NCBI GenBank assembly: GCA_051362555.1
Contig: CM120641.1
Span: 4,278,001-4,342,000, forward strand
Direction: 5' to 3'
DNA length: 64,000 nt
Source of the DNA: Lingula anatina
Lineage: Eukaryota; Animalia; Brachiopoda
Shown here: positions 32,819 through 63,488 of the stretch, in pieces
Layout: each line of letters opens with the position of its first letter
How positions within the stretch are numbered: position 1 is the stretch's first letter
Translations under genes and position numbers: made by a program
The notes under the pieces: generated by a model
Told to the model about the DNA's origin: nothing
Database searches by the model: none
The model's input: the letters and a program-made list of their open reading frames with translations, nothing else

Positions 32819-33531
32819 AATGGAACATGCAGCATAAATGGTAAATGCTATAATAATGAGGAACAAAACCCCAGTGATGCCTGCCAAATCTGTAATCCTA
32901 ATGTCACTGCTAGTGATTGGTATCTTCAGGTATGTAACTCTTTTCAGAGAGCAACTGTAGTAGGACACAAACAAGTTAAGGCCCAATGTCTGTGTACAGT
33001 AGTTTTTTACAGTAGTTTTTCATATAAACAATGAATTGTCTTCAGTCAAAGCATTTGGAGTAAGATTAATTTGCTTTAATGTAAAAATACTAATGCCTTC
33101 CACATATGGTACTTTTTTTCCAAACCCAAGTTTTAATTTTTTTGTACTAGTATGTAAAAACCACATTAAAATTTCCCCAGTATTAAGGAGTTGTACAAAT
33201 TCTTACCTGTACCTGTACATGTATCTTTTTTTTTCAGCCCAGTACCTGCACCATTGACAACCAGTGTTACACAGATGGTCAAGAAAGGACAGGGTCTTTT
33301 TGTGATGTTTGTTCTTCAGATAAGAACAGAAATTCTTGGGATATTTAGGTATTTTTTAAATAATTTGTTTTCCCAAGTAAATAAGCCATTGTATTTTATT
33401 TTACATTTAGATTTTTGAACACTTCTTTTTAATGATTTAACATCATTTAAGTATAGTGGCATGCCATGAATTTTTCCACATAAGTAGAGTTTTATTGAAA
33501 AAATAACAATACAAACAACATGTATCAAAAA

Positions 33532-33574
<43 letters not shown>

Positions 33575-36292: not shown

Positions 36293-39200
36293 GTAAGAAC
36301 CTATATGTTTTGTGCTATTTAAAACATGTGGCATTGAACTAGGCTTTCCTTAACATAAGAATTTTTAAGTATAGTGCAATAGTGAATTCAAGTTAATTAG
36401 TGTTGGGTCTCAAATATAATACTTCTCCACTTTTGAGAATGATACACCTTTTTTGTAATTTAATTCAAATGATAACTTTCAATTACACTAAAAATAACAA
36501 TGTTCCTCTTTATGTACCTTTTTAGCATGTGACCAAATGGATGATATTGGGAGTACAGTTGAGGCACCTTCAGGGTTAGATGCCAGCAGCCAGATGGCAA
36601 TTATCTTAGGAGGCATTTTGGGGAGCATATCTTTAATTGCTGTGACCCTAATAGTGGTTGTAAAATTAAGCAAAAGAAAAAGTAAGGAGATATTGATATT
36701 TTGATAATTGAGGTTTCCTTCACAAAAGCAGTACTTTTAAGTATTGAAAATTAATTATTTATTAATTATTAAAAAATTAATTTAAAAATTATTTCCATTA
36801 CTTATTTGGCAGTCTGTCTTTATTTTTTTCCCTCAACAACAGTCAGTAGTTCTACGGGGAGGCTCATACATTTTAAGGCAATGTTAGTGTGCAAAAGAAA
36901 TATTGAAGCATTATTGAGTCAACTATTACCATTTCCAAGAAGTATTTTCAATAACTTTAGTGTCATTTTATTATTATCATTATTTGTAACATTAGTGAAA
37001 CTATTTGGAGAAAAAGTTCCATTATTCATTTCTAGTCCAACAGGATCTACAAAGTTATATATACGTACTATCACTACGTAATTGTTTTAGTTTCATGACA
37101 ATATAATCAATACAAATGTTGCAAAGAAAAGTGAAAATGAAAGGCATTTATTTTCTGAATTGACCCTTTTTTTTAGGAGAAATATATGTTTGGAATCCAC
37201 CTTCTCATCCAGATTGAGCAAAACTTCACTAGTAATCCTACTGCTATTGGCAGAGACAACCAGGGATATCAGAGATCTACAGAAAAAAGATATGAAAGAG
37301 GCTTCAAACACCACAAGAACATCAGACATCAACCAGTTTATAAGTAATGGCGAAGTTATGGTGACTGATGTATATTCCTGCATCAGATTATTGAAGAACA
37401 TACTAATTAAAAAGTATATCACAGATTTGTATGTGGTTCTAAAAAGGACTTGTGTTTTATTGCCTTTCTTTGATAATTGACATTGACAAAATGTATTAAA
37501 AACATCATAACAGAAATGCAACATACCCAAGACATTCCAGTAATATCTCAAACACAGAAAAGTACTGTAGCTGACTGGTAATGGATACTTGCTTTGATAA
37601 TATACAAATAAAATCTTACTGAAAATCTTTAATCTTTAGCTGCGTGTTTTAAAGTTTCCCAGCGAATGTGTGTGGTATCATCTCCAGTCTCTGAGCAACC
37701 TTTTACTACGTGCATACAACAAGAAAGATGAGAAGTGGGTGAAGATTCCATGTCTCCCACATACTAGAGCCAGCCATGCTTGTTTGTTTATACACTGTGA
37801 GACCTGGTTGGAAGTTCACGTGCCCCTGTTTCTGCTACTTTGATTGGTTATAAGGGTCAAGCAGCAGGGCTTTTCACTTTGATATTGAGACAAATGTAAT
37901 CAATGTAGAGGGTACCAGAGAAGACAGGATTGTGCCGGAAGTGTGACGTCATGTGATGTCAAGTGGTGTAAGACGTGAACCTGAGTTGTCATTTTAAGCT
38001 GGAGGTGAATGGGAGTGAAGACATGGGTTTAGAGAAAAAAAGCAGTTTTTCCAACAAAATAGTATAGATAACATTTTTTCTTTTGGTATTTTGGGCTGAA
38101 AATAATAGGTACCTGATATGAAAACATGCTATGATACTTGAAGGTGCAAAATCATGCTTAATTTGCAGTCAATTCGTTTTGAAATATGTGCATGCAGCAT
38201 ATATTTCTAAACAAATTGACTGCAAACTGAGAAGTTCTCAATATGGGAATCTATATATTTTAGGTAATTTCCTTTTTAACATTTACAAACACTATATAAT
38301 ACCCTTTCTCAAATTAATATCATGTTCACACGTTTCTGTAAATATCCTGAATTTAAATATTAATGTAAAATGTCAGAGACTGATTTATGATGAGAGAGAG
38401 AGAGAGAGAGAGGAATTGTGCTTTTGCACCACCTCTCTCTTTGTTGGGAGAAACATGGCTTCTCAGATTAGGAAATCTTTTATGTTTCCTTTTCATATTA
38501 ATTTAATTCTTCACACATTTCTATAAATGTCCCAAACTAGAGGAGGGTGTTATAAATTAAACACATCTTGACAATATCCCATAGCTATTTAGCCTGCAGA
38601 GTGGTTTAGTTATTATGATTAACATTATTGTTTATATCTTTATTAATATTAAACAATTATTACTGCTTGCAGGTATACATGTTTGGAACCTGTACTATGC
38701 ATCATACATTAGCAATGGTGCAAAGTAGTGATACTTCTATAAAATGTTTTTCAAATATCAAATTTTATTAGATGTTTGAATACAACCAATAGAATAGAAT
38801 AGAACCAATGATACTGAATTGTTATAAAGACATGAAGGTAGCAGGGTGAGCATATATGCTTGGAGTTTTGCCCGAGAGGGATATATCTAGAGTTCAACTC
38901 ACTGCCCTGTGAAGCCATATTTTTGTGGCCTGAGATTTTGCATGTGTTACTTTGTGACCTGACCTGCCATTTTCTCCAAAAGTGAGTCTGTGCCCTGTTT
39001 TCATCTTTTGGATCTTCCACATTAATCAAGAAACAGATTATCAATTACAAGTGCTCGGGTGGGGTGGAAGCATGAAGGGAATAAATAAATAATTATAAGC
39101 AGTATCCTTGGGACACAAGGTATACGTAACTCTGCAATTTATATCTTTCAATTTATGCTGTGAAATATCACCCAACTAGCCTGTTGATCTCATGAATCAA

Positions 39201-40736: not shown

Positions 40737-43700
40737 TCAATAATCTGGTGGAGGAATATGCATCTGTGGCCCTATCATATAAGCTGGTTGATGTCTGATG
40801 TTGTTGTGGTGTTTGGAGCTTCTTTCATATCTTCTTTCTGTAGAGCTCTGGTATCCCTGGTTGTCTCTGCCAATAGCAGCAGGATCACCAATGTATCTGT
40901 CTCCTCTCAGCATATTGGTGTTTTGGGCATGGACATAGCCTAAATGTGACGTTTTGCTGAGACTGGATCCCAAATTGGATTTCAAATATACATTTTTCCT
41001 TAAAAAAAGATTCAATTAAAAAAATTAAACACTTTTAAGGGGTGTTATCTTTGAAAATTTCATTATGCATTACATTAATTGTAACCAACCCAAAACAATT
41101 ATGTACTAATAGTATACTAGTTTATATCTTTGCAGATCCTGATTGGAATGAACAATGGGACTTTTTCTCCAATACAATCAATACTGTAACAAATAGTAAT
41201 CCGGACATTGCCTTTATCAATGTTCAGAAAAAAACACAGTAGGACTTATTTAACCATGAGACACTCAATCATTTTAATGATTTAAAAATCACTGTTAAAT
41301 TAGTGAATTAAAATAATTATTATAATAACAAAATGATAATAATGTTATTAATAATGATAGTTAACCTAAAAATGGTTCCATATTTCTTTTGCAAACCAAA
41401 TTTGCCTTGAGATGGATGAATCTCAGCTTCTGCCAAATTAAAGACAGACTGGCAAATGATTTAAGAAAATAAATGTAAAAGTATTGCTTTCATGAGGAAA
41501 ACTTCAAATATTAAAAGAATTAACTTCTCTGCTTTAAAACTTACCTTTTCTTTTGCTTTGATTTCCAATGTAGGGTATGTCTAATTGCTGCAACCACTAT
41601 TAGAGTTACAGCAATAAATGATATGCTCCCCAAAACGCCTCCTAAGACAATTGCCATCTGGCTGGCATCTGACACTGAAGGTGCCTCAGCTGTACTACCA
41701 ATATGGTCACACACTAAAAAGATACATACGCATTGTTATTTTCAGTATACTAGGGTAAATGAAAGGTATCATTTTAAATCAAGTAACAATTAAGGGCAGA
41801 TTCTTATGTAAAGGAAAGCATAGTTTAAGGCCAAATCTATGATCATTTAGCAAAAAGATAGCTTTTATACCATCAGCTGAAGTCCAGTTGTATGTCGTGG
41901 TACTGGAATGACAGACTGTAGTATTGTCCACTGGGTTTACTTGACATGTATTGTAACAAACGTCATCTATCAAGCATGTGTTATTCTGAAAAAATATATG
42001 AGTGAATATGAATGATGTTTTGATTCAGTACACTGCACAATGTCATGTAACAACAAACTACAATGACAGTTAATATATCTCTGGACATTAAATGCTTGTT
42101 AAAGAATTTTCAATTTAAGAAACCAAAGGAATCGTTATTTAAAGAACATATATATTGCTTCAATTAAACCACATGTATCTACCAAAATAATCCACTCTGT
42201 CTGTGACATGCTTGGATCACAAATCTGGCATGGCCTTGTGGGATTGTGTTGGGTTTCATTGTAGCATGAACCATTTATACTGCAGGTGCCATTCTGGGGA
42301 CAAAAAGTATTTTTTATTAACCTTTATTGGAGAATATTAATGAAGTTTAATATCTAATATGAGAATACCATCCATGGACATTTAATTTACCCCATGCTTT
42401 GTGATAATTGGCCGATTTCAGAATATATATATAGTACCTTGATTGTCCAAGAGGTTGTAGAGGTGCTGGGAGAACAAATGTGACATATGTGACCATCCCT
42501 TGATTGCAGGTTGCCAATGCAGCTTCCTTCAATTTCACAACTTTCACTCTGAAATAAATACAAGCATAACTTTCAGCAGAACGTCCTACTGAATATAATT
42601 TATCAAGTAGCTATCTGGAAGTATTTTCAATTTTCATTTGTCACTACTCAGTCAAAGTTCTTACTAATTCTAGGTTTAAGTAGTTAATTTCTTCATAGTA
42701 AACACTATGTAATCCAAAAGTTGCCATACTAATTATATTAATTAATTTGTTCTGAATGAAAGAATTTTTTACCAGATCTGTCCACTGTGTGTTTGACACT
42801 GTGGGATCACAAATCTGACATGCCCTTGCTGGATTCTGCTGGGTTTCATTGTAGCATAAACCATTTATAGTACAGGTGCCATTCTGGTGGACATAAATTA
42901 TATTTTAAACAAAAGTAATACAATAAATCTATGCATTCACTTTATGTCATGGCTAATAAACCTACAAGAATGAATATGTAGCAATTCCCTGATATCAGAA
43001 CATACCCAGTACTACCTTGACTGACCAAGACATTTGATAAAATGCAAACATTTTCAAAATGAACCATTCCTATTCTTTTCAATATGATGTGACAGTAATG
43101 ATCTATGTTTTCTAAATGAGATATTCTCACCAGATCTGTCCACTCTGTCTGTGACACTCTGGGATCACAAATCTGGCATGGCCTTGCTGGGTTCTGCTGG
43201 GTTTCATTGTAGCATAAACCATTTATACTGCAGGTGCCATTCTGGAAATAGATATTGTACTTATTTTAGTTTTTTTTATTTGAGAATATTTATAAAGAGC
43301 ATTATCATTAAAAAAAGTTATTCTTAAAAAAAAGTTTTAAAAAGTTATTCTAAGTTAAAAAGTTAAAAAAGTTATTCTAAGCAATTACTAAAAAAAGAAT
43401 GACAAGTACTTACGCAGTACCTTGATTGTCCCAATTTGAAAATATTGATTGATTTCATTAATATATATGCAGTAATTTAATAATATTAGAATGTGGTTTG
43501 TACCTTGATTGTCCAAGAGGTTGTAGAGGTGCTGGGAGAACAAATGTGACATATGTGACCATCTCTTGATTGCAGGTTGCTAATGCATTTCCCATCAAGT
43601 TCACAAGCTTCATTCTGAAAGAGAAAAAATATAATAATATATCTTAAAGCTGAACCTTCTGCATTATTACAATGTGAAGTAAATATTGGATACACTGAAG

Positions 43701-46700
43701 TTCTGTTATGTGTCCTTTAAAATGAAGACTCCTGCTGTAGAACAGTTATATATATTTTTTCCAAAATGCACATTATGAAACCAAATAAGTCATGTTAATT
43801 AAACTTTTCATTTCTTAAAATTAAATTACATCCATGTCAAGTATACAAATTAATTTTGAAACAAAAATTTAACATGGACATTCGTAACTATCTCTGATTA
43901 TTTGACTTAAATATCAAAAACATTTTACAAGTTGTACCTTTCCTTCACCTTAATAATATGGTGCCACAGTAAAAGTCTATACCATTACATTATTTCTTTT
44001 CTAAATCTGACTTTCTCACCAGCTGTGTCCACTCTGTATTTGACACTCTGGGATCACAAATCTGGCATGGCCTTGCTGGGTTCTGCTGGGTTTCATTGTA
44101 GCATGAACCATTTATACTGCAGGTGCCATTCTGGAAATAAATGTTGTATTTTTAAACTCATAAACATTGATTTATTCAATATATTCAAGTCAATCTTTCA
44201 TGATGAATATAATTTTCTCACTCTAAACAATTAACTGATATCAGGAAATGTCTCATATAGTACCTTGACTTTCTGGATATTGATTTTGGATTATTTTACT
44301 AAATATGTACCAATTTGGCAGACATAGAAAATGCCTTCATGTCCAACAAATTATCCCCATTTGTAATTTTAATAATATCAGAATATGGCTTGTACCTTTA
44401 TTGTCCAAGAAGTTCTAGAAGTGCCAGAAGAACAAATGTGACACACGTGACCATCTCTTGCTTCCAGGCTGCCAATGCATCTTCCTTCAATTTCACAACG
44501 TTCACTCTGAAATATATTACAAAAACATAACTTTCAGCAGAACTTACTACTGAATATATAATATAATATAATATAATATAATATAATATAATATAATATA
44601 ATATAATATAATATAATATAATATAATATAATATAATATAATATAATATAATATTGATCAAGAGGATATCTGTAATTAGTGTCACCTTTTATTTGTCACT
44701 ATTCAGTCAAAGTCCTCTAGGAATAATTAAGTAGTAACTTTCTTCTTACTAAACACTATGTAATCCATAACAGTTACTGTCATACTAGACTTGAAATTAA
44801 TTATTCTAAATCTGACTTTCTCACCAGCTGTGTCCACTCTGTGTTTGACACTCTGGGATCACAAATCTGACATGGCCTTACTGGGTTCTGCTGGGTTTCA
44901 TTGTAGCATGAACCATTTATACTGCAGGTGCCATTCTGGGAACATAAATTGTATCATACTAAAAAATTTGATTAAAGATTTTATGTCTTCTCCATCTCAG
45001 TGTACCACAAACTTTTATGGTCTCATTCATAGCAAGAAAGAAGGCAACAAGGAGTATTGATTGTTCGTTTCCTATAATTTATTCCATTGACATATAATAT
45101 GTAATAATGTACATAATAATTAAATAACATCAGAATGTGTTTTGTACCTTGATTGTCCAAGAGGTTCTAGAGGTGCTGGGAGAACAAATGTGACACATGT
45201 GACCATCCCTTGATTGCAGGTTGCTAATGCATTTCCCATCAAGTTCACAGGTTTCTTTCTAAAAATGAATAAACGAAAATTAATTCTTTTTGTGCCATAA
45301 TTCACTTAGGCCTCATGCACTATTTTACAAAGAGTTTTCATCAAAATGCACATGTCATTTAAAACAAGGGATATTAATTATATATCTATTTGGAGAAATT
45401 TTCACCTGATCAGTCCAATTTGTCTTTGAAACATTCGGATCACAAATCTGGCATGGTCTTGCTGGGTTCTGCTGGGTTTCATTGTAGCATGAACCATTAA
45501 TACTGCAGGTACCATTCTGGAAACATAAACAAAATATTTAAACAAAAATATTGAATAATTTTATGCATTCAATTTAGAGATAGGATAATCTATTTCATGG
45601 CCAATAAACTTTTCAGCAATGGATATTTAGCAATTCCCTGATATCAAAATGTACTACCTTGATTGACCAAGAGATTTGATAAAACATGCAAATATTTTCA
45701 AAATGAACCATTCCTATTCTTTTCAATATAATGCCATAGTAATGCTCTATGTGATTACAGCATTTCTTTTCTGAATAAGTTATTCTCACAAGATCTGTCC
45801 ACTCTGTGTTTGACACTCTGGGATCACAAATCTTGCAGGATTCTGCTGGGTTTCATTGTAACATGAACCATTTATACTGCAGGTGCCATTCTGTAAATTC
45901 ACACTGTATTTTTTTTATCTGGCATGATATTGTATCATTCTACAAACTCTGAGATAATAATTAATTTTATTGATATATAATATGAAATAATGTAATAATT
46001 TAATAATATCAGAATTTGGCTTGTACCTTGACTGTCCAAGAGGTTCTAGAGGTGCTGGGAGAACAAATGTGACACATGTGACCATCTTTTAATTCTAGGC
46101 TGCCAATACATCTCCCTTCAATTTCACAACGTTCACTCTGAAATAAATACAAGTATACTTTCAGTAGAACTTCCTACTGAATATAATTTATCAAGAAGAC
46201 AACTGGAATATTTTCATCTTTATCTGTCATATTTCAGTCAAATATTTTAGGTATAATTAAGGTGTAACTTACATTAAACTAAATACTGTATAATCTAAAA
46301 CTATTGTACTAGACATGTATGTTTTTTTTTTCTAAATGAGATATTATCACCAGATCTGTCCACTTTGTGTTTGACACTCTGGGATCACAAATCTGGCATG
46401 GCCTTGCTGGATTCTGCTGGGTTTCATTGTAACATGAACCATTTATACTGCAGGTACCATTCTGAAAATAAATACTGTATTTTTTAGCATTTATTTGCTT
46501 TTTTTTAAAAAATAATTTTATGGCTATGAAGACAATCCCCCCCCCCCCCCCAAGACAATCTCCCTTCCCTAGTCAATTTCCTCCTGTTATGGATAAAATT
46601 AATGAGAATGAACAATGTGATATTGAGAAAAAAATTATAAATGCCTACCTATAATCAAAATCTCAATTAGATAGTGTAACAAACAATTTCACTTATTCAG

Positions 46701-49700
46701 GTAGCCTTTTGATGAACTAATTGACACTTTTAATTGTTTAACCCCCCCCCCCCCCCCCCCTTTAGCATGTTGAATGCCAATAATCAAGGTGCATCACCAG
46801 TTAAAGGTGGGATAAACAGATAATCTTACTCATCCAGGTATCCCTTTGATGAGCTTTCTGTCAGTTTTACTTGTTTCTCCTCTACCCCATGACATACTTT
46901 TTCTACTTTCAATATTATTAGTTACATCATTCAGAAAACTCAATAACATCAAAGTGCAGATAAAATATAATTTGTTAACTTTAGAAAAAAATGATTAATT
47001 GTTAGTTTTGTTTGATTAAAAAATAGCATGTAATGGCAAACTTACAAAATTTGCTCATTTTGTAATTCAAAATAACCTAGCTCTCAGGTCTGTTTATGCA
47101 GGTGAGCTACCAAGATATTTTGTATTTAATAGCCAATACTTTTATTTTTATTATATTTATTTTTGTCTCACTATTTTCAATAAAATATGCAACAAATGTA
47201 TAAATGCACCAAAAAGATAATTCAAAAGCAGTGTATATTCTTTTCTGGGAAGGGGGGGGGGGTGTCTTGAGGGGAGGGGGAAGGAATTGGTGAAATGTCC
47301 AGGGAAAATTGTACAGAGGGGGGGTAATGTCCTAGTATCAATATTGTTATCATATAAAAAGATATTAAAAGCTTCACATTTTTCATGACCAAGAAATATT
47401 TTCCATTCTAATTAAATAATTTAAAGGGATAATAACTCTTCATTTTGGCCAAACAATGATTTTTCCTGGAGTAAACAACAATTTTCTCATACTTACCAAT
47501 GGTTAATGAATCCATTTTTACATTCAAAGTTAGTCCCTGTTTTTTTTTCTAAAAAGTTTGGTTTTTTGTTAAAATCTCTTAAGAGATCATAACAGAGTAT
47601 AGCCATCAATGGAGGTCACGTGGTCTGAAGACAAGTTCAGATATCAGAATAATAGCTATAACTGCTGTTTTTGTTGTAAAACAGAATATATTATATTTCT
47701 GTGAGTTATTCACAATGTTTTTATTGGGAAATATAGACCTCATATGAAGAGTTATTATCCTTTTAATAATATCAGAATATATCTAGTACCTTGATTGTCC
47801 AAGAGGTTGTAGAGGTGCTGGGAGAACAAATGTGACACATGTGACCATCTTTTGATTTTTGATTGCTAATGCATTTCCCATCAAGTTCACAAGTTTCATT
47901 CTATAAAATAAAATTTATAAACATATCTTAAAGATGGACTAATTGCTTTCTTAAAAGTTATCTAGTAAATATTTGGGATGCAAACTTATTTTATTGGTCA
48001 TTATTCAATATAAATTCACTTTTTATGGCAATGGTATTTTTTTCACAAAACACACATTATATTATCAAAAGTGCCAAACTAGACATGTAAATTAAATTTT
48101 TATTGAAAGAAATGTCTCACCAGATCTGTCCATTCTGTGTCTGACAATCTTGGATCACAAATCTGGCATGCTTGGTTCTGCTGGGTTTCATTGTAACATG
48201 AGCCATTTATACTGCAGGTGCCATTCTGAAGACAGAAAAAGAATTACTCTTTGAACTGAAGAACATTGAATTACCCAACATGTTCACTGGACAGAGATAT
48301 AGGCAAATTTCACTCTTTCATGGGAAATATATTTTTTCTCACTCTGCAAAATAATTAACTACTCTCAGAAAGTCTCAAAGTGTCTTGCCATTTTTGATGC
48401 AGATATTAGATTCGTTTTTTACCAAAATTTGCAAACTCAAAAATTCTTCTCATTTATAATTCAATTACATCAGAATGTGGCTACCTTGATTGTCCAAGAG
48501 GTTCTAGAGGTGCTGGGAGAACAAATGTGACACAAATGATCTCTTCTTGACTCAAGGCTGCCAATGCAGATCCCCTCAATTTCACAATTTTCACTCTGAA
48601 AAAAGTATACAATATCTCACAACAGAGCTTATTATAATATAATTTTAAGGTAGAAACATGGATTTTTTTCAACTTTGATTATAACTATTATAGAAAACCT
48701 TGCCATAATACAGTTGTTTAAACAAACTAGACATAGTATAATATAAAACTGCCTTGCTAGACATATAAATGATTTTTTTTAATGAAAGAACTTCTCACCA
48801 GATCTGTCCACTCTGTGTTTGATGCACTTGGATCACAAATCTGGCATGGCCTTGCTGGGTTCTGCTGGGTTTCATTGTAGCATAAACCACTTATACTGCA
48901 GGTGCCATTCTGGAAATAGATATTGTACTTATTTTAGTAACTTTTGAGAATATTTATAAATAGTATTATCATATTAAAAAACTAGAGGATCAGAGAGGCG
49001 ATACCGCCTCCGAATATTGTACCACCAGCTGGAGCAAGTGCATTCGTATAGACCCCCACATACACAAAATAAGGGACACAGCCACCAGTCTTGTGCTTGA
49101 CAAGATGTAAACATGCAATCAACAAGAATTTTCAATATATGCAAAAAATATATGAAACTAAAAATGGTACAATCAAATTTAAGTTAATCGTAAGGTAGGT
49201 GAAAGGTCATTTTCAAGGTCACAGTAAATTGCCAGTATAAGACTTCCTATTCAAGTTCAATAGTAACTATGGACCTATCTCTGCCAGGTTTGGAGTTAAA
49301 AGAGAAAGAAATTAGCAGAGTTCAGTTCATGATTATAAGTAGATCAAAAGTCAATTTCAAGGTCACACTTAGATTGTCAGTATATGACTTCCTATTCAAT
49401 TTCAATAGTAACTATGGACCTATCTCTGCCAGTTTTGGAGATAAAAGGGAAGCAAAATTTGCAAAGTTCAGTTCATGGTGAAAAATAGGTCAAAGGTCAA
49501 TTTCAAGGTCACAGTAAGATTGCCAGTATATGACTTTCTATTCAAGTTCAATAGTATCTATGGACCTATCTCTGCCAGTTTTGCAGATAAAAGGGACTAA
49601 ATGTTATAATTTTGGAGTTACCATAATGTGCCATAAATTTCCTACAGAAAAAATTAATTAAAATAAAGAAAAGGTCATTTTGATCAAAATTTTTGGAATG

Positions 49701-52700
49701 GGAGGTGCTCTGAAGTTCCAGGTGTTCAAATTTCATGAAATATAATGTCATTTTTGACCACAAGTTGTCTGCTTTGCCAACCTTATGTATTATTTTTCCG
49801 GAGTTCAAAATTTATTATCCATTACCGTACTGCACATTTTGCTTTCACCACCAATATGTATTTTTTGATACAGCGTAACTTTAGAGATAAAAGGGAAGCA
49901 AAATTTGCAAAGTTAAGTTCATAGTGAAAAGTAGGTCAAAGGTCAATTTTAAGGTCACATTTAGATTGCCAGTATATGACTTCCTAATCAAGTTCAATAG
50001 TAACTATGGACCTATCTCTGCCAGTTTTGGAGATAAAAGGGAAGCAAAATTTGCAAAGTTCAGTTCATGGTGAAAAGTAGGTCAAAGGTCAATTTTACGG
50101 TCACATTTAGATTGCCAGTATATGACTTCCTTTTCAAGTTCAATAGTAACTATGGACCTATCTCTGCCAGTTTTGGAGATAAAAGGGAAGCAAAATTTGC
50201 AAAGTTCAGTTCATGGTGAAAAGTAGGTCAAAGGTCAATTTTACGGTCACATTTAGATTGCCAGTATATGACTTCCCATTCAACTTCAATAGTAACTATG
50301 GACCTATCTCTGCCAGTTTTGGAGATATAAGGGAAGCAAAATTTGCAAAGTTCAGTTCGTGGTGAAAAGTAGGTCAAAGGTCAATTTTAAGGTCACATTT
50401 AGATTGCCAGTATATGACTTCCTATTCAAGTTCAATAGAAACTATGGACCTATCTCTGCCAGTTTTGGAGATAAAAGGGAAGCAAAATTTGCAAAGTTCA
50501 GTTCATGGTGAAAAGTAGGTCAAAGGTCAATTTCAAGGTCACAGTAAGATTGCCACTATATGACTTCCTATTCAACTTCAATAGTAACTATGGACCTATC
50601 TCTGCCAGTTTTGGAGATATAAGGGACTAAATGTTATAATTTTGGAGTTACCATAATGTGCCATAAATTTCCTACAGAAAAGATTAATTAAAATAAAGAA
50701 AACATCATTTTGGTCAAAATTCTTAAAACAGGAGGTGCTCTGAAGTTCCAAAAGTTCAAATTTGATGAAATAATGTCATTTTTGACCACAAGTTGTCTGC
50801 TTTGGCAAGCCTTATGTATTATTTTTCCAGAGTTCAAAATTTATTATCCATTACCGTACTGCACATTTTGCTTTCACCACCAATATGTACTTTTTGATAC
50901 AGCGTAACTTGAAAACCGTATGGAATACAAAAAAACGAAGACCACTTCAGTGTTGGGCTTTACATGCTCTACAAAATGCAAAAAAGAATGGGTCTCTAGC
51001 ATTAACGGTTCCCGAATTAGAGACAGTTTTCAGTTTCGGTACTTTATGGCCGCTACTCCCGTGAAAATGCACCGATTGACCCCAAATTCACGGAGATGAA
51101 AGATGACCAGAAGGGTAACACTTTCCAATAATATTATTGGTTAAGTCTGCGTGGTGTCTGAATAACAGGGCAAAAAAAATTTTTTTCGTAAAAAATTTCA
51201 TTTTTTTGAAAATTTTGGCCCGTTTGACCTTGAAATAAAGGTCAAAGGTCAAATCCAAGGGCATATTTGAAATCTACACATATGACTTTTGGAAAGCTGT
51301 CTGTAGAAATTTTTCCCATAACTCCTTCCTTAGGGTAGATAATTAGCATTTAATTTTGCCATTTTTAGACAAGGGTGCATTGCAATGAGTGCCACACCTA
51401 GACCCCAATACCGACAAAGCCCAAATTTTACGTGGAATGAGTTGAGATTATAGGTGACCTAAATCCAAGAGATGGGTACAGGGGCCCTTACCGTCTAGGA
51501 GGAGAAGCGGTAACGGTGACTTGGCGGCGGAGCCGCAGGAGCCGGCGGAGCTGCAGGAGCCGGCGGAGCCGCAGGAGCCGGCGGAGCCGCAGGAGCCGGC
51601 GGAACATACGGGTCGGGACTAAAACCATGGGTACCGCCAGCGCCTACGCTGGTGGTACAATAAGCAAAAAAATATATTCTAATCAATTAGTGAAAAATGA
51701 ATGACAAGTACAGGTACTTTAATTGTCCAAGAATTCTTTTATTTGATAATATTGATTAATTTTATCAACAAACAATATGTAATAATTGAATAATATCAGA
51801 ATATGGTTCGTACCTTGATTGTCCAAGAGGTTGTAGAGGTGCTGGGAGAACAAATGTGACATATGTGACGATCCCTTGATTTTAGGTTGCTAATGCAACT
51901 TCCCTCAATTTCACAGGTTTCATCCTGAAAAATAAATCAATTTTATCTTGAAGCTGATATCACTATTAAGCATTAAATATAAAATAAATATTGGGATATT
52001 TTTTCATTTGCCATTATTCACTAAAAACATTAATCTTTTTATGGCTGTGTCATTTTTCATCAAAATAGTCATAAAATTGGAAAAGGATGCCAAACTTTGT
52101 CCATAAAAAGAAATTCTCACCAGCTGTGTCCATTCTGTGTTTGACACTCTGGGATCACAAATCTGGCATGGCCTTGCTGGATTCTGCTGGGTTTCATTGT
52201 AGCATACACCATTTATACTGCAGGTGCCATTCTGAAGAGAGAAAAAAGTATTTTTCATTGAAACCAAGAACATTCAATGATCCACCATGTTCACTGGACA
52301 GTGATAGAGGCAAATTTCCCTCTTTCATGGGAAATAAAATTTTCTCACTCTGTGAAATAATTAACTGATATCAGAAAATATCTCATGGTACTTTGCCATT
52401 CTTGATAAAGATATTTGATTATTTCACAAAATATATGCCAATTTTTGCCATATATAGAAATGTCTTCAAGTCTGACAAATTCTCCCCTTATAACTTAATT
52501 ACAGCAGAATGTGGATCAAACCAGTACCTTGATTGTCCAAGAAGTTCTAGAAGTGCCAGGGGAACAAATGTGACATGGGTGACCATCTTTTGATACTTGG
52601 TTGCTAATACAGCTTCCATCAATTTCACAACTTTCACTCTGAAATAAATTATGCGCAGCACTATCAACCAAACTTCCCTAGTGAATATAATTTATCAAGT

Positions 52701-55700
52701 AGATATCTGGAATTATCTTTATATTTTATTTGTCATTATTCAGTCAAAGTTCTTTCTAGGTATAATCAAGGAGTTATAACAGTTATAACCCCTTGGTATA
52801 ATTAAGTAGCAACTTTCTTCTAAGTAAACACTATATGATAAAAACTATTGTATTCTACATATTACTTTATTTTTTCTAAATGAGATATTCTCACCAGATC
52901 TGTCCATTCTGTATTTGACACTCTGGGATCACAAATCTGGCATGGCCTTGCTTGGTTCTGCTGGGTTTCATTGTAACATGAACCATATATACTGCAGGTG
53001 CCATTCTGGGAATAAATATTGTATTTTTTAAAGCATTTATTTGAGTTTTTCATAATATTATTATTATTATTGTTACAGATATGATAGTGAGAATGAACAA
53101 TGTGATATTGAGAAAAAATTCAAAAGCAGTGTATATTTTTCCTGGGATGGGGGGTGTGCGAGTGTGTGTGTGTGTGCGTGTGGGGTGAAATGTCTTGAGG
53201 GGATGGGAGAGGCATTGTCAGGTGAGATGTCCAAAGGAAATTGTCCAGAGGGGGATATGTCTTAGAATAAATATTATCATCATATAAAAAGATACTTAAA
53301 GCTTCACATTTTTCATGACCAAGAAATATTCTCCATTCTAATTAATAATTTAATTATATAAGAATATCTAGTACCTTGATTGTCCAAGAGGTTCTAGAGG
53401 TGCTGGGGGAACAAATGTGACACATGTGACCATCCCTTGATTGCAGGTTGCTAATGCATTTCCCATCAAGTTCACAAGTTTCATTCTATAAAAATAAAAT
53501 TTATAAACATATCTTAAAGCCGAACTGCTAATATATTTCCATTTGCCATTATTCACCACAGATTCACTCTTTATGGCAATGATATTTTTCTTCAAAACAC
53601 ACATTATAAAATTATTATCAAATAGTGCCAGACTACACATGTAAATAAATTTTATTGAAAGAAATTTTTCACCAGCTGTGTCCACTTTGTGTTTGACACT
53701 CTGGGATCACAAATCTGACATGGTCTTGCTGGGTTCTGTTGGGTTTCATTGTAGCATGAACCATTTATACTGCAGGTGCCATTCTGGAAATAGAATATTA
53801 AGTGCTATTTTTATACTCAATAGTATTGGGTAATACAGTGTGAGAGAATTTTGAATTATACGTTTTCCATTGTCCTTAAGGGATCACCATGTTACATAGG
53901 TAAAATAACATATGAAGTCTCTTTAGCAACAATTTTCTTTTTCTCTATAAAAGTTGTTATTGGGTTACTCACCAGCTCAAACCATGTCTCTGTGCTGTAC
54001 TTTGGGTCACATAATTCACAGGGTTCTGAAGGATTTCTGTCACTACTGTTATAGCAAGTAGAGTTCACATAGCATGTTTCATTCTGAAAAAAAGGACAAA
54101 CATTCTTTTTTCATTTAGTCTTCAAATTTAGTCCTAAGATATATTTTTATTATATTTTCACAATGTTGAAGAACTCTTATACATCAAATAAACATTCAGT
54201 AACATTTATTAAATTCGCCAATTAACTCACCAGAAGCACCCAATCTGTGATGTTGACAGCTGGGTTGCAAACTTTGCATGACTTTCCTTCCTGTGCCTCT
54301 CCCTTGTGATAACAACTCCCATTTATTCTACATGCATTACTCTGAAACAACATATTTTCTAATATCAGTTTATTCTTATATATAATAATAACTGTAACTT
54401 GATAAACAAGGGTACATATGTAACAACTGATCCAGACACAGTACAGTACCAGATTCAGGTACAGATGGCAGCAATAAAAATTGATGTATCCACTTTCAGT
54501 CTTTTTCCCTTACCAAAACTGAAGAAAATTAACACATACTCAGGCCAGCAAGTAAGTCATAATTGCTACTTTTGTTTAGTCATACAAGCTGTGCAAGATT
54601 ATCTACCTGTATATACCAAGCAGTTTTGTTCCAAGATGGGATGCAAATCTGGCATGGGTCATCAGGATTTGTGTCATTTTCCTTATAACACATTTCTCCA
54701 ATTCTGCAGGTTCCATTCTGTGAGGCAATATAAAACAGCAGTGTTCACAAAACATTGAGCTACCAGTAAACAATTTTATGTAAAATAAAGTAATTAAAAT
54801 GGCTTGTTTTGTGTTTTGGAAAACACTATATATTATACTTGAATCATATCAAATCATAAAAATACCTTAATATCCCAAGAATTTCTGTTCTTATCTGAAG
54901 AACAAACATCACAAAAAGACCCTGTCCTTTCTTGACCATCTGTGTAACACTGGTTGTCAATGGTGCAGGTGCTGGGCTGAAAAAAAACTGGTACATGTTT
55001 AGAACATTCTGCTGAAACATAAATGCTGCTGTCACTCCATGTTGCTTGTATTTATTGCCTGTGTTTTGCTGTTCTAGCCTAAAGGTACAAGTTGTTGGTG
55101 TTATATACAATCCAAAGGTACCAGCTAGTGGTACAATATACACTCTCAGGTACCATGCAGCTTATGGTGGTACAATGTGGTCATTAAAACTTGACTACCT
55201 GGTATCCAAAATAAATGGTCAAATTGTATTTTTATTGCAAGATCAATATTTAAATATGCAATTCAAATGGCTACTTGTAAAAATACCAAAATGTAATCAA
55301 GAAGTTTGACTGTTTCTATAAATGCAATTTGTAAAATGGAAGATCAAGTTTGTAAATGTAAATATTGTTGACACTAGGACTACAGGTAAAACTGGGGAGA
55401 ATTTAAGCCATGTTCTATCTCCTGTTCATTTACATAGATGCACAAAACTAGTTTTGTATTTGCTGATCAATTCCATTAACACTTAATTTCTGTTTATGTA
55501 AGACCTGAAATATGCCTGGACTTTTTGTACAGATAAAATTACGTACAATAATTTAAAATTGAGGGAATATTAAAGAGATGTTATATACCAGTGCAAAAAA
55601 ATTAAAACATGGGTTATGATAAAAGATGCAATATGTTAATATAAGGCACAGGTAGTTTGAAAAGCAAATGGGTCTAAAAAAAATTAACTGATGACAATTC

Positions 55701-58700
55701 AACGTTTAGCCACAAAAAACAAATGCCAGGACTTTTCATGCAGGTAAGAATATGTACAATACACTGCACCTTAATATTGGGGAAATTTTAATGTGGTTTT
55801 TATATACTGGTACAAAAAATTAAAACAGGTTAGAAAAAAAGAAGCAATATGTGGCAGGGGCAAGTAATTTCATATCAAAGCAAATTTATTTTACTCAAAA
55901 TGATTTGTCTGGTGACAATCCCTGTTTAGACTTTTCTGAAAAAAAAAAAAGACGTGTGCTAGACATGTGCTAGACAATGGCACCAACATTGTTCTACCAC
56001 AGTTTATGTCTGAAAAGAGTTACATACCCGAAGATACCAATCACTAGTAGTGACATTAGGATTGCAGATTTGGCAGGCATCACTGGGGTTTTGTTCCTCA
56101 TTATTATAGCATTTACCATTTATGCTACATGTTCCATTCTGAAAATAATCAGATAAATTTTATCATAACTAATTTTGGACAACTCAATATGTTCATTATA
56201 TAATGCTTTGCAGACACATGTGGTTAGAGAATGCACTTCACATACCGTACAAGTGTGGTTCAATTGCTGGTCGAAAAAGGATTTTGGCAGCAAACAAGAT
56301 GCATTCCAGTTGCATCTGGCCCATTTGAGGCACATGCAGAACATTCTGACAGGATTGGAAGTGTCTTGCCATTTCGGTTCACCCTTGATTGTGATCAGAA
56401 TGTTTCGAATGCTGTTGGAATGCCGTAAGAATATTAACAATGAACTCATAGTGCAGTTAGAATGCACTTCCAATGCCAGTTAATATTTCTCTACTTGGGA
56501 TGCACTTTGCAAATTTTGAGCATGAGCAAAACATTCGGACCGGACTCAAGAATGGGTCCATATATTTGAAATGCACTTAGAATTTTTAGAATGCACTTCA
56601 AATATCCAGGAATATACAAAGAATTTTCATTCCAATGACATTCTAGCTCATTCCAAATTTAGTGTGACTAGGGTATTACAGATTGAATGATAATGTACTA
56701 TTTCTTCAGTTATACTGAAGATAATTTTTAAACATACATGAAATGGTTATCTGTTCATTACTTAAACATACTATTTTCATTAAGAGAACTTAAAACATAC
56801 CTTTATTCACAAGTTTGTTTTTATTTTGGTGAGTATATAAATGTATCTTGTTACCTTTAAGTGGCATTGTGATGGCCCATCACATCTGTAGCATTTAGAG
56901 TCATACACAGCCACTTTCAGAGGATGACTGTAGTTGGTACCACTGTTACTGATGCTGATATTGTAAACCTTGATCACTTCATCACTACTGATATCACTCC
57001 TCTTTTGACGTAATTTTGGGAATGGGCAGATCACCTCTTCTTCATGAACGAACTCTGCATCGTTATATTCAGTAATCACACCAGATGCCTAGTGAAAAAG
57101 TTGAGAAACGGTAAAATATTTCTGAAAATATTGTAACACCTTGCAATTACAAGTATCTAGCCAATTTAAATAGTTAATATTTTCATAGATTATGTATTAG
57201 ATGTAAAAAAACTTGCAACAATTGCAACTTACCGTGAGATGTTCTGTTTTACAAGACAGGTTTGATGACTGTACAAACGGGCCTCCATAAACTGGAGTTT
57301 CAAGACATGGTCGCTGAGATATGTCACAAAGCCCATTTGTTGGCATATAATATAAGTCAGGAATAGTATCCCTGCTGATAGAACAATCACTTGATACATA
57401 CCCTGGGTAACATTCACAGGAGCTAGTACCTAAAATGAGTGAAAATGTACCTGTATGTAGTCTGGAATGAATATGATGTCTTTAAGTTCAAACTCTACCA
57501 TTCTAAAATAATCTTAATGAAAAACATCTCAAAGTAACAATATTAATAAAATAAATAGTTCCACAAATAGTGTCTACAGGAGACATTACAAAAACAATAC
57601 CACTTCAAAAATAGTTAGATTTTAAACAATACTGAAGCTGAATAACAAGCTATTCCTCTCTTTCTCACAAAAATAAATTTTGGTGTGCCAGGCAAATGGT
57701 ACTTAATGGTGAGTCCATTATTGTATCTTACCTGCGTAGAGCACTGGCACACTGTATACTCATTGTGGTCAAAAGGCCGTACGTAGAGGGGTTCCCATTA
57801 TAGCAACTTAAAGTGAGGTCATCATAACTTGACCACATCCCTAGCACACCAGCCAGGGTTATATACATGTATATGAAAATAGTGAATCAGCCAATATAAT
57901 ATATAATATATCTTACCATTATTTCTAGTACATACACCATTGCTGCTGCAATCATTAGGGCACTTGATGACATCCAACTCTTCTGGAAGAGCAACCTCTC
58001 CTGTAGAGTTGTCAACTACCCAGTAGCTCTCATTTTTGGACAGTTCTCCAACACACATTCCCTTGATAGAATCGAGTGCTGCAAGTGCCCAGGCATTGTC
58101 TCCTGTCAACTAAAATTGTAAAATTGCAGGAATTGTAATTAAAATATTTTTAATTTGTGATGCACATCATCTGAGAAGCTGATGACAATATTTGTGGGTC
58201 TTGTGCCCCAGCCCTTAAAACAAGGGGCAAAGGTGGACACAATTTGATGCCTACAGCCACATGATAAAAAATGTGCAAGCAAATATCATGACAGGACTGT
58301 AATACAGTTACCAATGAAATTTTACTCCAAGTTAGAATGTATTAAAAGTCTCTCAGTAAAGAATAATTTTACCAACATGTATGTCATCCTTGCATCCTTT
58401 GAGTGCAACTTCATAATCCACATTCTCTACTGCTTGACAAGCTTTCCCAGCACTGCTGTTATATATATAATTACTGCAGAACTCATCTGCCTTAGCTTCT
58501 GTCCAACCATTCTTCCATTCTGGTTCCTATATAAGTTTTAGAGATAAAACCATCCACAATTAATTTAATTACATTACCATCTAATTAATTTAATTAGCAT
58601 CTACAATTAATTTAATTAGAACAAACAGTAATATATAGATTCTGGGTGAGGTGATGTTAGGGATATATTTGACCCAAAGTTGGGACGATTGACACTAGAG

Positions 58701-60662
58701 CAGTATATTTTGCATTTTTTTCACTCCACTCATGCATATTTAATGTTATGAATGTTATTAATGCTTCTTACCTCTATTCTGTCATCTGCATTATATTCAA
58801 ATTTACGTATCTCAAATATTTCGTCATGACTAGCAGCAGCTCTTCTTTTTCGACATTTTGCAAGTTGTTTCACTGAGTAGCTGTTGTCTGAAGCACACTT
58901 TGCAACATTCTCTGTGTAGCTACAATCCAGTGGAAGAGAACTGTTAAACACAATCTGGTCACCTGTGGTGGGGCATCTGCAATACTCTGCTTGAATGGAG
59001 GTCACATTGGAGGATGCTGGGATGCCATTATACATTGAATCTGACGCATCAGATACTCTGAAATTTTGACATTTTTAAAAAATCATTTTTATTCATGGAC
59101 CATAAATAATAATTACAAGAGAGAAATGTTAATATTAAATAATTATAATGAATAACTTATAGAAAATTTTGACATAAATTGTCTTTCCTAACATAACAGA
59201 CCAGAAGTACCATGTGTATTCCAAGGAATAGTAAAAGGAACATTTTTGCCTTTTTGCCAATTGTTGCTTGCCAAAGCGTGAAATGTGTCTCACCTCCATG
59301 ACAGTGAGAAATCATTGGGGTACAATGAGATAGGGTCTGTTGTACCATCATGTCGTAGAAAATCATCATTTTTGTTTCCGTTCAGAGTTCCACAGAGCCC
59401 TACAGTAGATTCTACATCCTTAGACCCTGGGTGAATGTGGATATTCATGTAATAGTCATCTATGTAATAATATGATCTGGCATATACATAACCTCCTGTT
59501 GGCAAATATATCTGAAATATATATCCAAAATTATTATGACTAGATGCACAATGAAACCAAATTTAATTGTTAGTTGATTTTTACTTATGGTACTATTATT
59601 CATCTCAGTCGATACCAGAACAACTGACTCTGAACTATGAACTGCCCCAAAGACTATAAATGTTTGCCAAATAGTTAAGACAATTTATTTCCTACAGGAA
59701 ATGATAACAATGAGTCAAATTATAACAGAGAAGTTTTGATTTGGCTAAATGATAAAATTTCTGTTACTGTTAGTGCAGATGATACATGTAGCTTGAATTG
59801 CAAACCAGTTGTGTAAGTATCATGAATAAGCATTTAAAATAAAGCTCAAACCTTAAAATCTTTTGCATTATTAAATGACTCCACTCTCATTTGTCCATGT
59901 TCACAACCCAAAAGTCCTGAACGCATTGGTTTTTTAATGCCCTTAGTTGTTTGAGACCCTGTTCCAGCTCTACATCTGTCGAAAATAAACAGATCGCCCC
60001 CAGACATGACTGTGACAGCACAAGGACAAAAAGCACGTCCATTATTACACTTTTTGAAGAAACCATGCACCTGTAAAGAAATTAGAATTATCCAGACCAG
60101 GTTAGAATATTTGTGAAAATTATTGCATTTGTAGAAAAATTAACATGCCAACACATTCTTCATTCTCAATTGTAGATACAACAATACATACAAGATGAAA
60201 TATAGAAATTATAACAAAACTGGTACTGATATAAAAAAATGGTGAGAAACAAAAGTACATTTGATGTCATAAAGGATACATGTACCAGTCACATCAAAAG
60301 ATATTAATGTAATCATACAATGTAATCATACCTGGATTGGCAGAGTTTGGTGTTTATACATTATGAATTCTCCTGGAAGCTGGCATTCATATCGTCTGAA
60401 TATGTAAAGAATATTATACTGGTATGAAGAAATTCTTAAAAACAGGATTCAGAAATTTATTGAAGAACATTATAAAAGAAAAGAAAGGAAAAATGCCACA
60501 AATCTTTTATCTAATCTGTTAGCTTTGAGAAGACATACCATATTTTATCATGGCAAAAAAGTAACATGTTAGCACCCAGAGTTTCAGGGATCACAGCAAA
60601 CTCCCCGCTAAAATAAGCTGATAGTGAAAGGTCATTTCTAGAAATCTCTGCAAGGGTGCATT

Positions 60663-60709
<47 letters not shown>

Positions 60710-63488
60710 AAGGGATTAGATACAAAGGATTGATCTTGCCTCGAAAAATCTGGATTTTGATAGATCAGAATAAAAAGAGAGAGAAAGAAAAGAGTCCAAT
60801 ATGTTGGTTATTGTTAAGGGACTGGGTTAGGATCATACTCTGAGATTCTGATAGAGGAGCTGACATGGAAGGCATTTTCTCAATTTAAAGAATTGTATGA
60901 TTGCATGGAGCTACGGTATCTGATTCCTGGTAGTAACATACAAATCACATCATAAATGATACTTACACACCATCAAAGGTCATCATATGTGGGTCACTGT
61001 TTGCCATACACACAAGTCCTTTTAAAGTCATGTCTGTATCAATCACCAATATCTATAAAAATCAGTCATTCTGTTTCAAGAAGCAATAATAATAAACAAA
61101 TATTTACAATTCATATTTTCATTAAATTACTCCTTGGAAATATCATTTAAATGCAGTCTTTCCTTTTCTATAAGTAGCCGAGTTCTGTAAAATTTGAAAA
61201 TATGTGTGGGCTGCAATATAATTAATTCCCTTTAAAACCTCTTCACCTTTATCTCTCCCCTCACACACACACATCCAGGTTAGTTATGGTGCATCCAAAT
61301 GACACGGCTAGACTGAGAGCTTGTTGTGAATTTCTTCATTACTGTAAAACCAGTTTAAAATACAAACAATCTTACTGGTATATCTGCTAGTCTGTAGTTG
61401 CTCCAGGCTTGATGAACATTAAATTCAGCTGTTGACAGCAGCACTTTGGTGATTTGGTCTCCATCATATATTCCATCTATGACTGGGGCTATTTTCAAGG
61501 TGACAGTTTTATTCCAGTGCTTAGCATTTATCTGTATACCACATGCCTCCACCACTGCCTCCTGTCTTTGACTAACTCCACCCTCTGATGGACACAGTGC
61601 TTGTTTCCACTGTTGTGGAATACGGACTTCCACTTGGAGAAAGATATCTTCACAATAAAAGTCAAACACTGGAATGTCAGTGCATAGGATTGGCACTGTT
61701 GGTTGAAAAGCTATAATGGCAGGATTGGGATCATTTTCTTTTATTCTAATTGGAAAGTCACTTGAATTCAGCACCTGAAATAAAGATACATACAACAGCA
61801 TGCATGCAGGCACTTAAAAACAATTTTCCATGCTCACTACATATATAAATGGAAACAAATTAATAAAACAAATCCACAATCAATACTGCAGTTATAATAT
61901 AATAAGAATATTGACTTATAATATAATCATATACTGCCTAGTGTACATGTACATAATGAGTATAAACATCTACATGGAGTATTATTTATGTGTATGTTAA
62001 AATACATGTAAAAAGTTATTATTATTATTAAATTTCAACATGATCCTAACATAGTTTTGTATAAACCTTATTATTCTTCCTACCAATGCAATATTTACCT
62101 TTATACCTGCAAAAAACTCTGGACTTTCAACAGCCAAACTTCTGGCACCAACAAGTTCTCCATCTTGTACATACTTTCCCTTTACTCTGCATTTTACCTG
62201 GAAATTTAAATCACAAATTAAACAATGCTTTCTTTAAAATTTTATATGGCTTAGTTGAAGGTACATTAGATAAGCCATGGACAGCTTTTAATAAAATCTC
62301 TTACAAAAAAAAATGACCTTAAACATTATAATGTATCTGGGATATCTGGACTAACAACATCCATAGGGGGGAATAACAATGCAGTGACATAAAGATATGA
62401 TCCCAGACATAATTGGGTTCTGGTTCTGAATGTAGCCTATAACAACCATTAAAAGATCAAGTATACCTCACCTGAAAGCCAAGAGTAATGGATTTGCTCA
62501 GCCAGACACTTTCTCTGAGCTGAGCAGGCAAATCAGCCACATCAACGTTGTCTTCCTCATGGACAAGTTGTGAATTAATGTACCATTTCACATCAAAGAA
62601 GAGCAGAGACAGCTTGTCTGCAGGGACTTGATCATAGAAGGGCAGGCAGGTGAACATAAGCTCCTTTTTTGTTATATTTTCAAAAATATAACGTTCAACT
62701 CTTTCATCCACTTGAATGTCTGGTTGCTGTGTTATATTTGGGAAATTATCTAACAGAATGAAATACTTAATTAACATCATAAAACTGTTTATTTAATTTA
62801 CTGTTATTTAATTTTATCAATGTCATACTGCTGCCTATTCATTGAAAATATGTGTAAAACATATTCAAGAAACTCAATTTATCCATCTAAATATTTGTTT
62901 GTCAAGTCTTACACAAAATGTAAACTTTTTGATTTAATGTGCACAACTCATAAATAAAAATAAAGACCTAACCTGAACAACCTGGTTCAAAACCATCTTC
63001 TGATATAGTTCCTGGGGGACATAGTACCTTATCACCTAAATAAGTTGTAAAACAAATGAAGAAATACAAATTTTAAGTTGTCTCTTCCATGTGCAGCCAT
63101 TTAAATTTTGCTGTTGTGTTTTATTATTTTTTCATCAGTTACATGCAATGCAAAAAATTGTTGCTTACCAACATGCCCATATATGAAATAAATGCACATT
63201 TCAGTGGGTAGTGGTGTGTTCCAAGGTGGGGAAATGAACAAATTTTAGATTATAGTTACTTTATGTATACTAATAATTAGCTAGGTATCCTCATTATCAA
63301 TAAAAAATGAGACAATCACTCACCTATACAGTAACGCTCAGCACACTGACTCACAGGTGGCAGATGATATACATTGTATGTAGAACAATTCTTTAACTGT
63401 ATGTCATATGTCTTGGCACAGCAAACAGTGGAATTCTTCACACATACAGTACCATTAATGACACCATCATCAGCGGAGGGTAAGGAAC
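40737..63488 (-). CDS. von Willebrand factor D and EGF domain-containing (VWDE-related) type I membrane protein, copy 2, 5'-partial
   Basis: Minus-strand exons in transcript order: 63324-63488, 62973-63035, 62472-62749, 62099-62197, 61376-61774, 60967-61052, 60332-60395, 59852-60070, 59294-59511, 58772-59057, 58377-58526, 57917-58109, 57233-57429, 56855-57088, 29 module exons 56138 down to 41871, TM exon 41545-41713 (MAIVLGGVLGSISFIAVTLIVVAAI-RHTLHWKSKQKKR), last exon 40737-40998. All are phase-compatible except module 45790-45890. Motifs ESPEFFAGIK, DPHMMTFDG, GLCG and CPNDCS match VWDE-family proteins. Confidence 0.9.
44554..44653. repeat. (ATATA)n pentanucleotide microsatellite
   Basis: About 20 tandem ATATA units. 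Paralogous introns (42590-42600, 46160-46190) have only GAATATAATT at this site. Confidence 0.92.
47425..47762. mobile_element. Kolobok-like MITE copy 3
   Basis: TTAA-AGGGATAATAACTCTTCAT...ATGAAGAGTTATTATCCTT-TTAA. The empty site with a single TTAA is present in the duplicated intron at ~53349-53353. Confidence 0.9.
49190..50620. repeat. 146-bp tandem repeat inside the HINE
   Basis: AACTATGGACCTATCTCTGCCAG recurs at 49265, 49410, 49556 and at 50002, 50148, 50294, 50440, 50586. A ~290-bp spacer block is duplicated at ~49590-49880 and ~50620-50910. Confidence 0.92.
51526..51603. repeat. 18-bp GC-rich minisatellite (GGCGGAGCCGCAGGAGCC)x4
   Basis: Four tandem units, read directly; it occupies the microsatellite position of the HINE. 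Confidence 0.9.
60667..60707. repeat. (AT)n microsatellite
   Basis: About 20 AT units in an intron of the minus-strand gene. Confidence 0.92.

Follow-up and report, generated by a model that had tools for sequence, protein, structure and literature searches.

A VWDE-like membrane protein gene of Lingula anatina with 29 single-exon cysteine modules, and its inverted paralog

We have analyzed a 64,000-nucleotide (nt) stretch of the genome of the brachiopod Lingula anatina (GenBank assembly GCA_051362555.1, contig CM120641.1, positions 4,278,001 to 4,342,000 of the forward strand), hereafter called the window; positions are counted from its first letter. The window harbours two related genes, gene B on the minus strand and paralog A on the plus strand, which comparison of the window with itself placed in an inverted, tail-to-tail arrangement 3.4 kb apart. 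Gene B encodes a VWDE-family membrane protein of type I topology, and in it 29 exons, each encoding one cysteine module of about 37 amino acids, precede a transmembrane exon and a cytoplasmic tail exon. A first-pass annotation had described such a VWDE-derived receptor as a single gene; the origin and topology that it proposed are supported here, as is expression, and it had overlooked the 11-module paralog A. The features are collected in Table 1.

Table 1. Features of gene B, paralog A and an intron element within the 64,000-nt window
Feature	Positions	Strand	Remarks
Gene B, D8C (uromodulin/GP2-like) exon	63324..63488	-	first coding exon inside the window; Pfam D8C_UMOD E=0.0014, below cut-off
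Gene B, four exons (63, 278, 99 and 399 nt), D8C to VWD	61376..63035	-	gene model
Gene B, VWD domain, four exons	59294..61052	-	Pfam VWD (PF00094) E=5.7e-6, above cut-off
Gene B, linker (RKRR furin-type site), helical (Vwde) region, EGF, beta domain with RQKR; five exons	56855..59057	-	
Gene B, modules 1-5, unique types, 111 nt each, phase 0-0	53973..56138	-	
Gene B, modules 6-28, young a-type/b-type array	42183..53783	-	
Gene B, module 14, 105 nt, in-frame 6-nt deletion	48121..48225	-	
Gene B, module 18, 101 nt, 10-nt deletion, frameshifted, weakest acceptor of 40 modules	45790..45890	-	
Gene B, module 29, 115 nt, phase 0-1, divergent terminal module	41871..41985	-	
Gene B, transmembrane exon	41545..41713	-	hydropathy 2.5 versus <=1.3 elsewhere; junctions in RNA
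Gene B, cytoplasmic tail exon, 101-amino-acid tail, DNQGY and C-terminal PPDY (PPxY)	40737..40998	-	
Paralog A, head (signal exon, D8C exons, VWD, EGF), broken	14537..32221	+	
Paralog A, array of 11 modules and a degenerate remnant at about 35389	32819..36292	+	
Paralog A, transmembrane exon and short-tail exon, tail to tail with gene B	36526..37347	+	
Mobile element with 146-bp tandem array in intron 11	48979..51659	.	joint in DNA run X1 skips the element

The module exons of gene B lie between 56138 and 41871, and all 29 are bounded by AG and GT. Twenty-six are 111 nt long and of phase 0-0, and the others measure 105, 101 and 115 nt. Module 29, being of phase 0-1, cannot be skipped in frame; 27 modules can. 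The earlier description of the modules as interchangeable 111-nt units holds for the size and phase of those 26 exons, and fails in that the unique, a-type and b-type modules differ and the last module is unskippable in frame. The succession of 29 one-module exons, transmembrane segment and tail was borne out, its last two junctions being present in RNA. A strict module pattern gave 26 matches, versus none in 200 shuffled controls; C4, C10, C25 and W34 are invariant in all 35 aligned modules of both paralogs, and C22 is nearly so. The 5' end of gene B is outside the window, with the exons upstream of D8C beyond position 64000. When module 18 is omitted, 14 upstream exons, 28 modules, the transmembrane exon and the tail form an open reading frame of 2061 residues plus stop; with module 18 included the frame stops at residue 1623. 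The stalk comprises 1035 amino acids, with 112 cysteines and 48 N-glycosylation sequons.

Domains of the head were also followed on related proteins. On protein P0005 the D8C domain scores 38 bits against a cut-off of 27, and PF00094 is above cut-off there too. The Vwde helical domain (PF26129) is a precomputed assignment on protein P0001; in this region gene B is 80-94% identical to P0005, and the local Pfam scan gave no match to this model. The candidate EGF-like domain after VWD is split between exons in gene B (E 0.03-0.08) and is below cut-off in P0005 (E=0.006); it is above cut-off in several relatives. The stretch between D8C and VWD is beta-strand-rich in the model of a scallop relative. 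A motif scan located SDPH at the GDPH-type autocleavage position of the gene B VWD domain. The roles ascribed below to the SDPH, RKRR, RQKR, DNQGY and PPDY motifs are putative.

The modules of gene B are arranged as 5 unique, (ab)x6, a, a, b, a, b, a, b, a, a, b, a and 1 unique. The introns that follow B6, B7 and B8 are homologous to those that follow B14, B15 and B16; likewise the intron after B18 matches that after B25, and those after B16 and B26 match that after A6. These homologies indicate that multi-exon blocks were duplicated, modules together with their introns, and they support the proposed growth by unequal crossing-over. In a tree of all 40 modules (7 of 37 branches well supported) those of A and B are intermixed; some A/B module pairs are 97-98% identical, and the head exons of the two genes are 92-99.5% identical. 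Judged from these comparisons, the array appears to have grown by block duplication combined with exchange between the paralogs. Pooled pairwise ratios of nonsynonymous to synonymous substitution rates (dN/dS; Nei-Gojobori, with modules 14, 18 and A2 and the unique modules excluded) came to 0.34 among 17 a-type and 0.48 among 12 b-type modules, and to 0.29 when the heads of A and B were compared. By this measure the modules are under purifying selection, and the a-type modules are nearly identical to each other. Module 18 has 5 pyrimidines among 11 acceptor positions, the fewest among the 40 modules, and besides its deletion it differs from its nearest relatives by 3-4 mismatches, with everything downstream intact; it is likely a skipped dead exon.

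Paralog A as found in the window carries three lesions. The first is a miniature inverted-repeat transposable element (MITE) within a D8C exon at 19039-19438; the element itself, at 19125-19298, has 55-nt inverted arms and a target-site duplication in the coding exon. In the second, 4.3 kb is inserted after 22265, and the remainder of the interrupted exon is missing together with the 399-nt exon. The third is a TAG at the end of module 2, in place of which A-looking reads of RNA runs X18-X20 have a lysine codon. When the 399-nt exon was used as query, two Lingula anatina proteins were recovered as its closest named proteins. The first is the RefSeq allele of paralog A (XP_013420489.1), which is intact, has 11 modules in identical order and lacks the module 2 stop. 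Paralog A is thus likely a null/intact polymorphism. RefSeq models nine isoforms of it, X1-X9, with 11, 10, 10, 9, 9, 9, 8, 6 and 6 modules, which are otherwise identical up to the array. The second match (P0002, LOC106158796) has 12 modules and a tail like that of B, is 72-92% identical to gene B exons, and is probably a third paralog. Paralogs beyond the window are known through RefSeq proteins only; two partial Lingula proteins also look like fragments of gene B. The array thus holds 29 modules in gene B, 11 in A and at least 12 in the third paralog. The copy-number variability predicted earlier is therefore seen between paralogs, whereas two assemblies agree in the 11 modules of paralog A.

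Separately, by eye, P0002 appears to start with C-type-lectin-like and somatomedin-B-like segments ahead of D8C, for which Pfam gave no match, and the head of the paralogs may vary, as this N-terminus suggests. Copies similar to the small inverted-repeat element of 19125-19298 lie near 3380-3520, 3965-4020 and 27188-27335. The insertion at 22266-26580 has inverted ends and internal TCCTATAGGA satellite blocks, and its left end recurs near 23790 as a nested copy.

Five of nine RNA runs were mapped (X12, X15, X18, X19 and X20). The last three, from one study, show exon depth over the gene, and X12 and X15 show almost none. The junction of the transmembrane and tail exons is crossed by 43, 32 and 5 reads in X18, X19 and X20, and that of module 29 with the transmembrane exon by 4, 5 and 0 reads, plus 6, 2 and 3 for a variant allele. 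In X18, modules 4 and 5 are covered by 16-19 reads, and a junction of the VWD region (59852/59511) by 86. One of 11 indexed DNA runs (X1) was mapped; copy number cannot be read from its summed contig depth. This run lacks the module 14 deletion and has a joint without the intron 11 element, so that the locus is polymorphic; the variation seen in gene B is sequence, indel and insertion polymorphism. Joints of this run that skip 0.4-6.3 kb near 46740 were rejected, since they fall at a poly-C run or in a duplicated intron.

The search with a profile of the 37-residue module, which the first-pass annotation had suggested, gave 1976 matches among 1.84 billion representatives and showed that arrays with a transmembrane segment occur in other animals as well. 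Among the stored proteins, 161 have at least 4 modules, and 42, including 10 Lingula records, have back-to-back runs of at least 4. Such arrays occur in Saccostrea (13 modules in a partial protein; another with 5 modules, a stalk rich in serine, threonine and proline, and a transmembrane segment), Pinctada (14 modules, transmembrane segment and NPTY tail), the annelid Owenia (9 modules and a chitin-binding domain), the chiton Liolophura (21 modules, without a VWD match) and the unnamed record P0027 (12 modules and a transmembrane segment). The top match, P0017, is from a Polyangiales bacterium and has over 40 modules spaced about 90 amino acids apart; many other matches look bacterial. In Lingula, the chiton, one Saccostrea protein and P0027, the nearest neighbour of a module is mostly another from the same protein or species, though not in Owenia and Mytilus, which suggests separate array expansions in the former four.

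In twelve further VWDE-like relatives the number of modules ranges from 0 to 9, and 8 of them have a transmembrane segment by the hydropathy cut-off (one in mid-protein); a transmembrane anchor is common among mollusc VWDE-like proteins. Neither the array nor the membrane anchor is special to gene B, contrary to the earlier reading. The slot between the EGF/beta domain and the transmembrane segment is filled in different ways. In scallop, abalone and Potamilus it holds a single module directly before the transmembrane segment. In C. virginica, Saccostrea and Lingula P0169 it holds 1-5 modules and a stalk of 44-56% serine, threonine and proline (one module and 56% in C. virginica), and in Lingula A, Pinctada and P0027 it holds 11-14 modules.

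The module matched no Pfam family, no PDB sequence and no Atlas entry. A literature search that covered few subscription journals found no paper on gene B or on such arrays, and neither the gene, the module nor the arrays are described in the available parts of PMC4595640, PMC13425148, PMC7390686, PMC9892467, PMC9589101, PMC5712786, PMC7533068, PMC9281564, PMC2576457 and PMC8930769; in the supplement of the Lingula genome paper (PMC4595640) the VWD rows bear other names. An existing description of the same architecture, which the first-pass annotation had named as a ground against its reading, was found in part: the automated RefSeq isoforms X1-X9 of Lingula VWDE have both array and transmembrane segment. 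Within the literature searched, the architecture is thus present in databases under an automated name and apparently not in print.

An a-b-a-b-a pentamer of the RefSeq A protein, a model of the kind suggested earlier, was predicted from 33 homologues as a confident fold consisting entirely of short beta strands (predicted local distance difference test, pLDDT, 97.2; predicted template modelling score, pTM, 0.79). Foldseek gave a best E of 0.11 for this model, and VIA-align gave no match at Z>=2 among 48,161 chains; the lack of structural matches does not prove a new fold. The model of the whole scallop relative (pLDDT 72) matches D domains of MUC2, MUC5 and VWF and the decoy module of GP2 (E 4e-7).

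With the VWDE family, gene B shares the head of D8C, VWD and Vwde helical domains followed by a candidate EGF domain, and with the scallop, abalone and oyster relatives its transmembrane anchor. It differs in its 101-residue tail with PPxY and in its 29 modules, which exceed any animal tandem array among the matches (next are 21 in the chiton, without VWD, and 14 in Pinctada). Vertebrate-type VWDE is secreted and has C-terminal EGF repeats, in place of which gene B has the module array, transmembrane segment and tail; the matches included no vertebrate sequence. PMC7390686 proposes that vertebrate VWDE, with its EGF repeats, belongs to the extracellular matrix. A search of the Atlas with the scallop relative gave SUSD2 and Mesh clusters as leads below 0.9. 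Like gene B, MUC4, SUSD2 and Mesh are type I membrane proteins with VWD and a GDPH-like site. Transmembrane mucins differ from gene B, whose stalk is a disulfide module array and has no proline-threonine-serine domain, stalks of that composition being found only in relatives. Gene B has SDPH, at which cleavage is predicted from the motif, and P0005 lacks a NIDO-AMOP-VWD or SEA unit; Pfam gave no NIDO, AMOP, Sushi or SEA match on this protein. Mesh is a transmembrane septate-junction protein according to PMC9281564. Uromodulin and GP2 resemble gene B in the D8C domain, and GP2 also through the match of its decoy module to the scallop model. Both are GPI-anchored, whereas gene B has a transmembrane segment, and no ZP domain was found. 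The GP2 decoy module is a glycan decoy for FimH (PMC8930769).

We consider it fairly probable that the array is a spacer which lifts the D8C-VWD head above the cell surface. We favour this reading because one module, a serine/threonine/proline stalk and a module array share the same slot in the relatives; homogenisation and conservation of the modules point the same way. The 28 intact cysteine modules would likely fold into a rigid, heavily N-glycosylated stalk that does the job of the mucin stalk of the relatives. With its phase-0 design of one exon per module, the stalk could lengthen or shorten through unequal crossing-over and conversion, within or between the inverted paralogs, and damaged modules (B18 and the remnant in A) would be tolerated because they are skipped. 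Variation in the modules would then set the reach and glycan load of the stalk and not a binding code. Any binding would be by the head, perhaps cut at the SDPH and furin sites, and the tail (DNQGY and PPxY) would control turnover.

Several observations weigh against the spacer. The conserved a/b alternation and a histidine-rich variable patch of the b-type modules could form a binding surface. The array would be rod-shaped as judged from pTM only. Sequon density is 0.4-1.1 per 100 amino acids in the chiton, Owenia and P0027 arrays, so that a glycan role is not general. The dN/dS pairs are non-independent, and pooling can mask selected sites. As to the skipping of module 18, its acceptor score (5) is matched by the weakest of 34 control acceptors, and no 17-to-19 or 17-to-20 junction was seen among the joints listed (15 of 138; 15 of 29).

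The alternative that fares best is that regulated exon skipping tunes stalk length by tissue or stage, for adhesion or mucin-like reach and with no recognition code; we regard this as unlikely. It is favoured by the 27 modules that can be skipped in frame and by the nine RefSeq isoforms of paralog A, with 6-11 modules. The distinct modules B19, B22 and B26 have a depth of 0-2x, compared with 3-12x for most of B27-B29, and DNA run X1 contains B22, whose acceptor is weak. Joints absent from the reference are also seen, such as 20 to 23 (22, 36 and 9 reads in the three runs) and 23 to 23 (17, 40 and 26 reads). However, all 8 scored joints of this kind (15 listed of 29) differ from a constitutive junction of A or B by no more than 6 mismatches per 100 nt. 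All 8 RefSeq skips likewise lie within 5 mismatches per 100 nt of one, as would 25 of all 45 possible skips (P=0.005, which assumes uniform choice and takes the window's A exons as proxy for RefSeq A). Since the scored joints and RefSeq skips mimic constitutive junctions, combinatorial splicing is not shown, and RefSeq isoforms X2-X9 may be mapping artefacts; genuine skipping limited to the young modules would give a similar pattern. Multiple allele frequencies in the tail indicate that the samples hold many haplotypes, and there are loose ends with module starts and chimeras foreign to the window; low depth may therefore be allelic. Junctions of module 2 with a-type modules (68, 85 and 46 loose-end reads), considered as gene B skipping modules 3-5, were rejected because paralog A has that junction in the genome; a further ground is that exon depth mostly rises with the similarity of A and B.

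The first-pass annotation had proposed a candidate recognition receptor (gamete, allorecognition or immune). That gene B is such a hypervariable receptor, comparable to bindin or Dscam and with specificity coded by module combinations, is in our judgement very unlikely. Several paralogs, the null allele of A, chimeric or novel module sequences in reads and a signalling-type tail would fit such a system, as may the higher level of VWDE-annotated transcripts in parasite-tolerant than in sensitive oyster families (PMC9892467). Against it, dN/dS is below 0.5 and the a-type modules are nearly identical, which points to purifying selection on the modules and not to diversification; paralog A has one and the same set of 11 modules in both assemblies, in relatives a single module or a serine/threonine/proline stalk suffices, and no diagnostic skip was found among the scored joints. 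Oyster sperm bindin (PMC5712786) and Schistosoma SmPoMuc (PMC2576457) are tandem repeat genes varied through recombination and splicing; the bindin repeats are lectin domains with positive selection and demonstrated splicing (PMC5712786). No sequence relation to either was found, and neither positive selection (pooled dN/dS only) nor demonstrated splicing was found in the Lingula array.

It is highly improbable that gene B of the window is a null allele or young pseudogene and its long array unselected repeat growth: inclusion of module 18 gives a premature stop, the neighbouring A allele has three lesions and the module 14 deletion is absent from X1, but a single lesion in 45 exons breaks the frame, B-specific exons, transmembrane segment and tail are transcribed and spliced in 3 runs, and the modules are under purifying selection.

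The window has other features as well. The intron 11 element (48979-51659) is high-copy and widely transcribed, has 15-nt inverted arms near its ends and appears polymorphic; we take it to resemble Helentron-type non-autonomous elements. At about 230-1900 on the plus strand lies the 3' part of a gene, apparently with two alternative copies of its last exon, which we presume to encode a Nudix hydrolase of NUDT14 type (a 44-amino-acid piece had no Pfam match). A sulfotransferase-family gene (PF13469) occupies about 9360-11905 on the same strand.

A wider proposal, which we hold to be decidedly doubtful, is that lophotrochozoan VWDE proteins form an unrecognised class of surface receptor with an exon-modular, telescopic stalk of an unnamed disulfide domain that also occurs in bacterial surface repeats; skipping would re-set the Lingula stalk in each cell, and exchange between the inverted paralogs would do so in each haplotype, so that individuals would bear surface signatures of their own. 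Whichever reading is preferred, the 37-amino-acid module is widespread, arrayed in several animal lineages and confidently modelled, and merits a name of its own and an experimental structure. With its differing module numbers and the dead exons within its arrays, the locus offers a clean natural case of the birth and death of stalk exons. It also advises caution about the isoforms that RefSeq lists for arrays of near-identical exons, since these may be artefacts of mapping. If true, regulated skipping would be a testable case of length control of a surface protein in a brachiopod.

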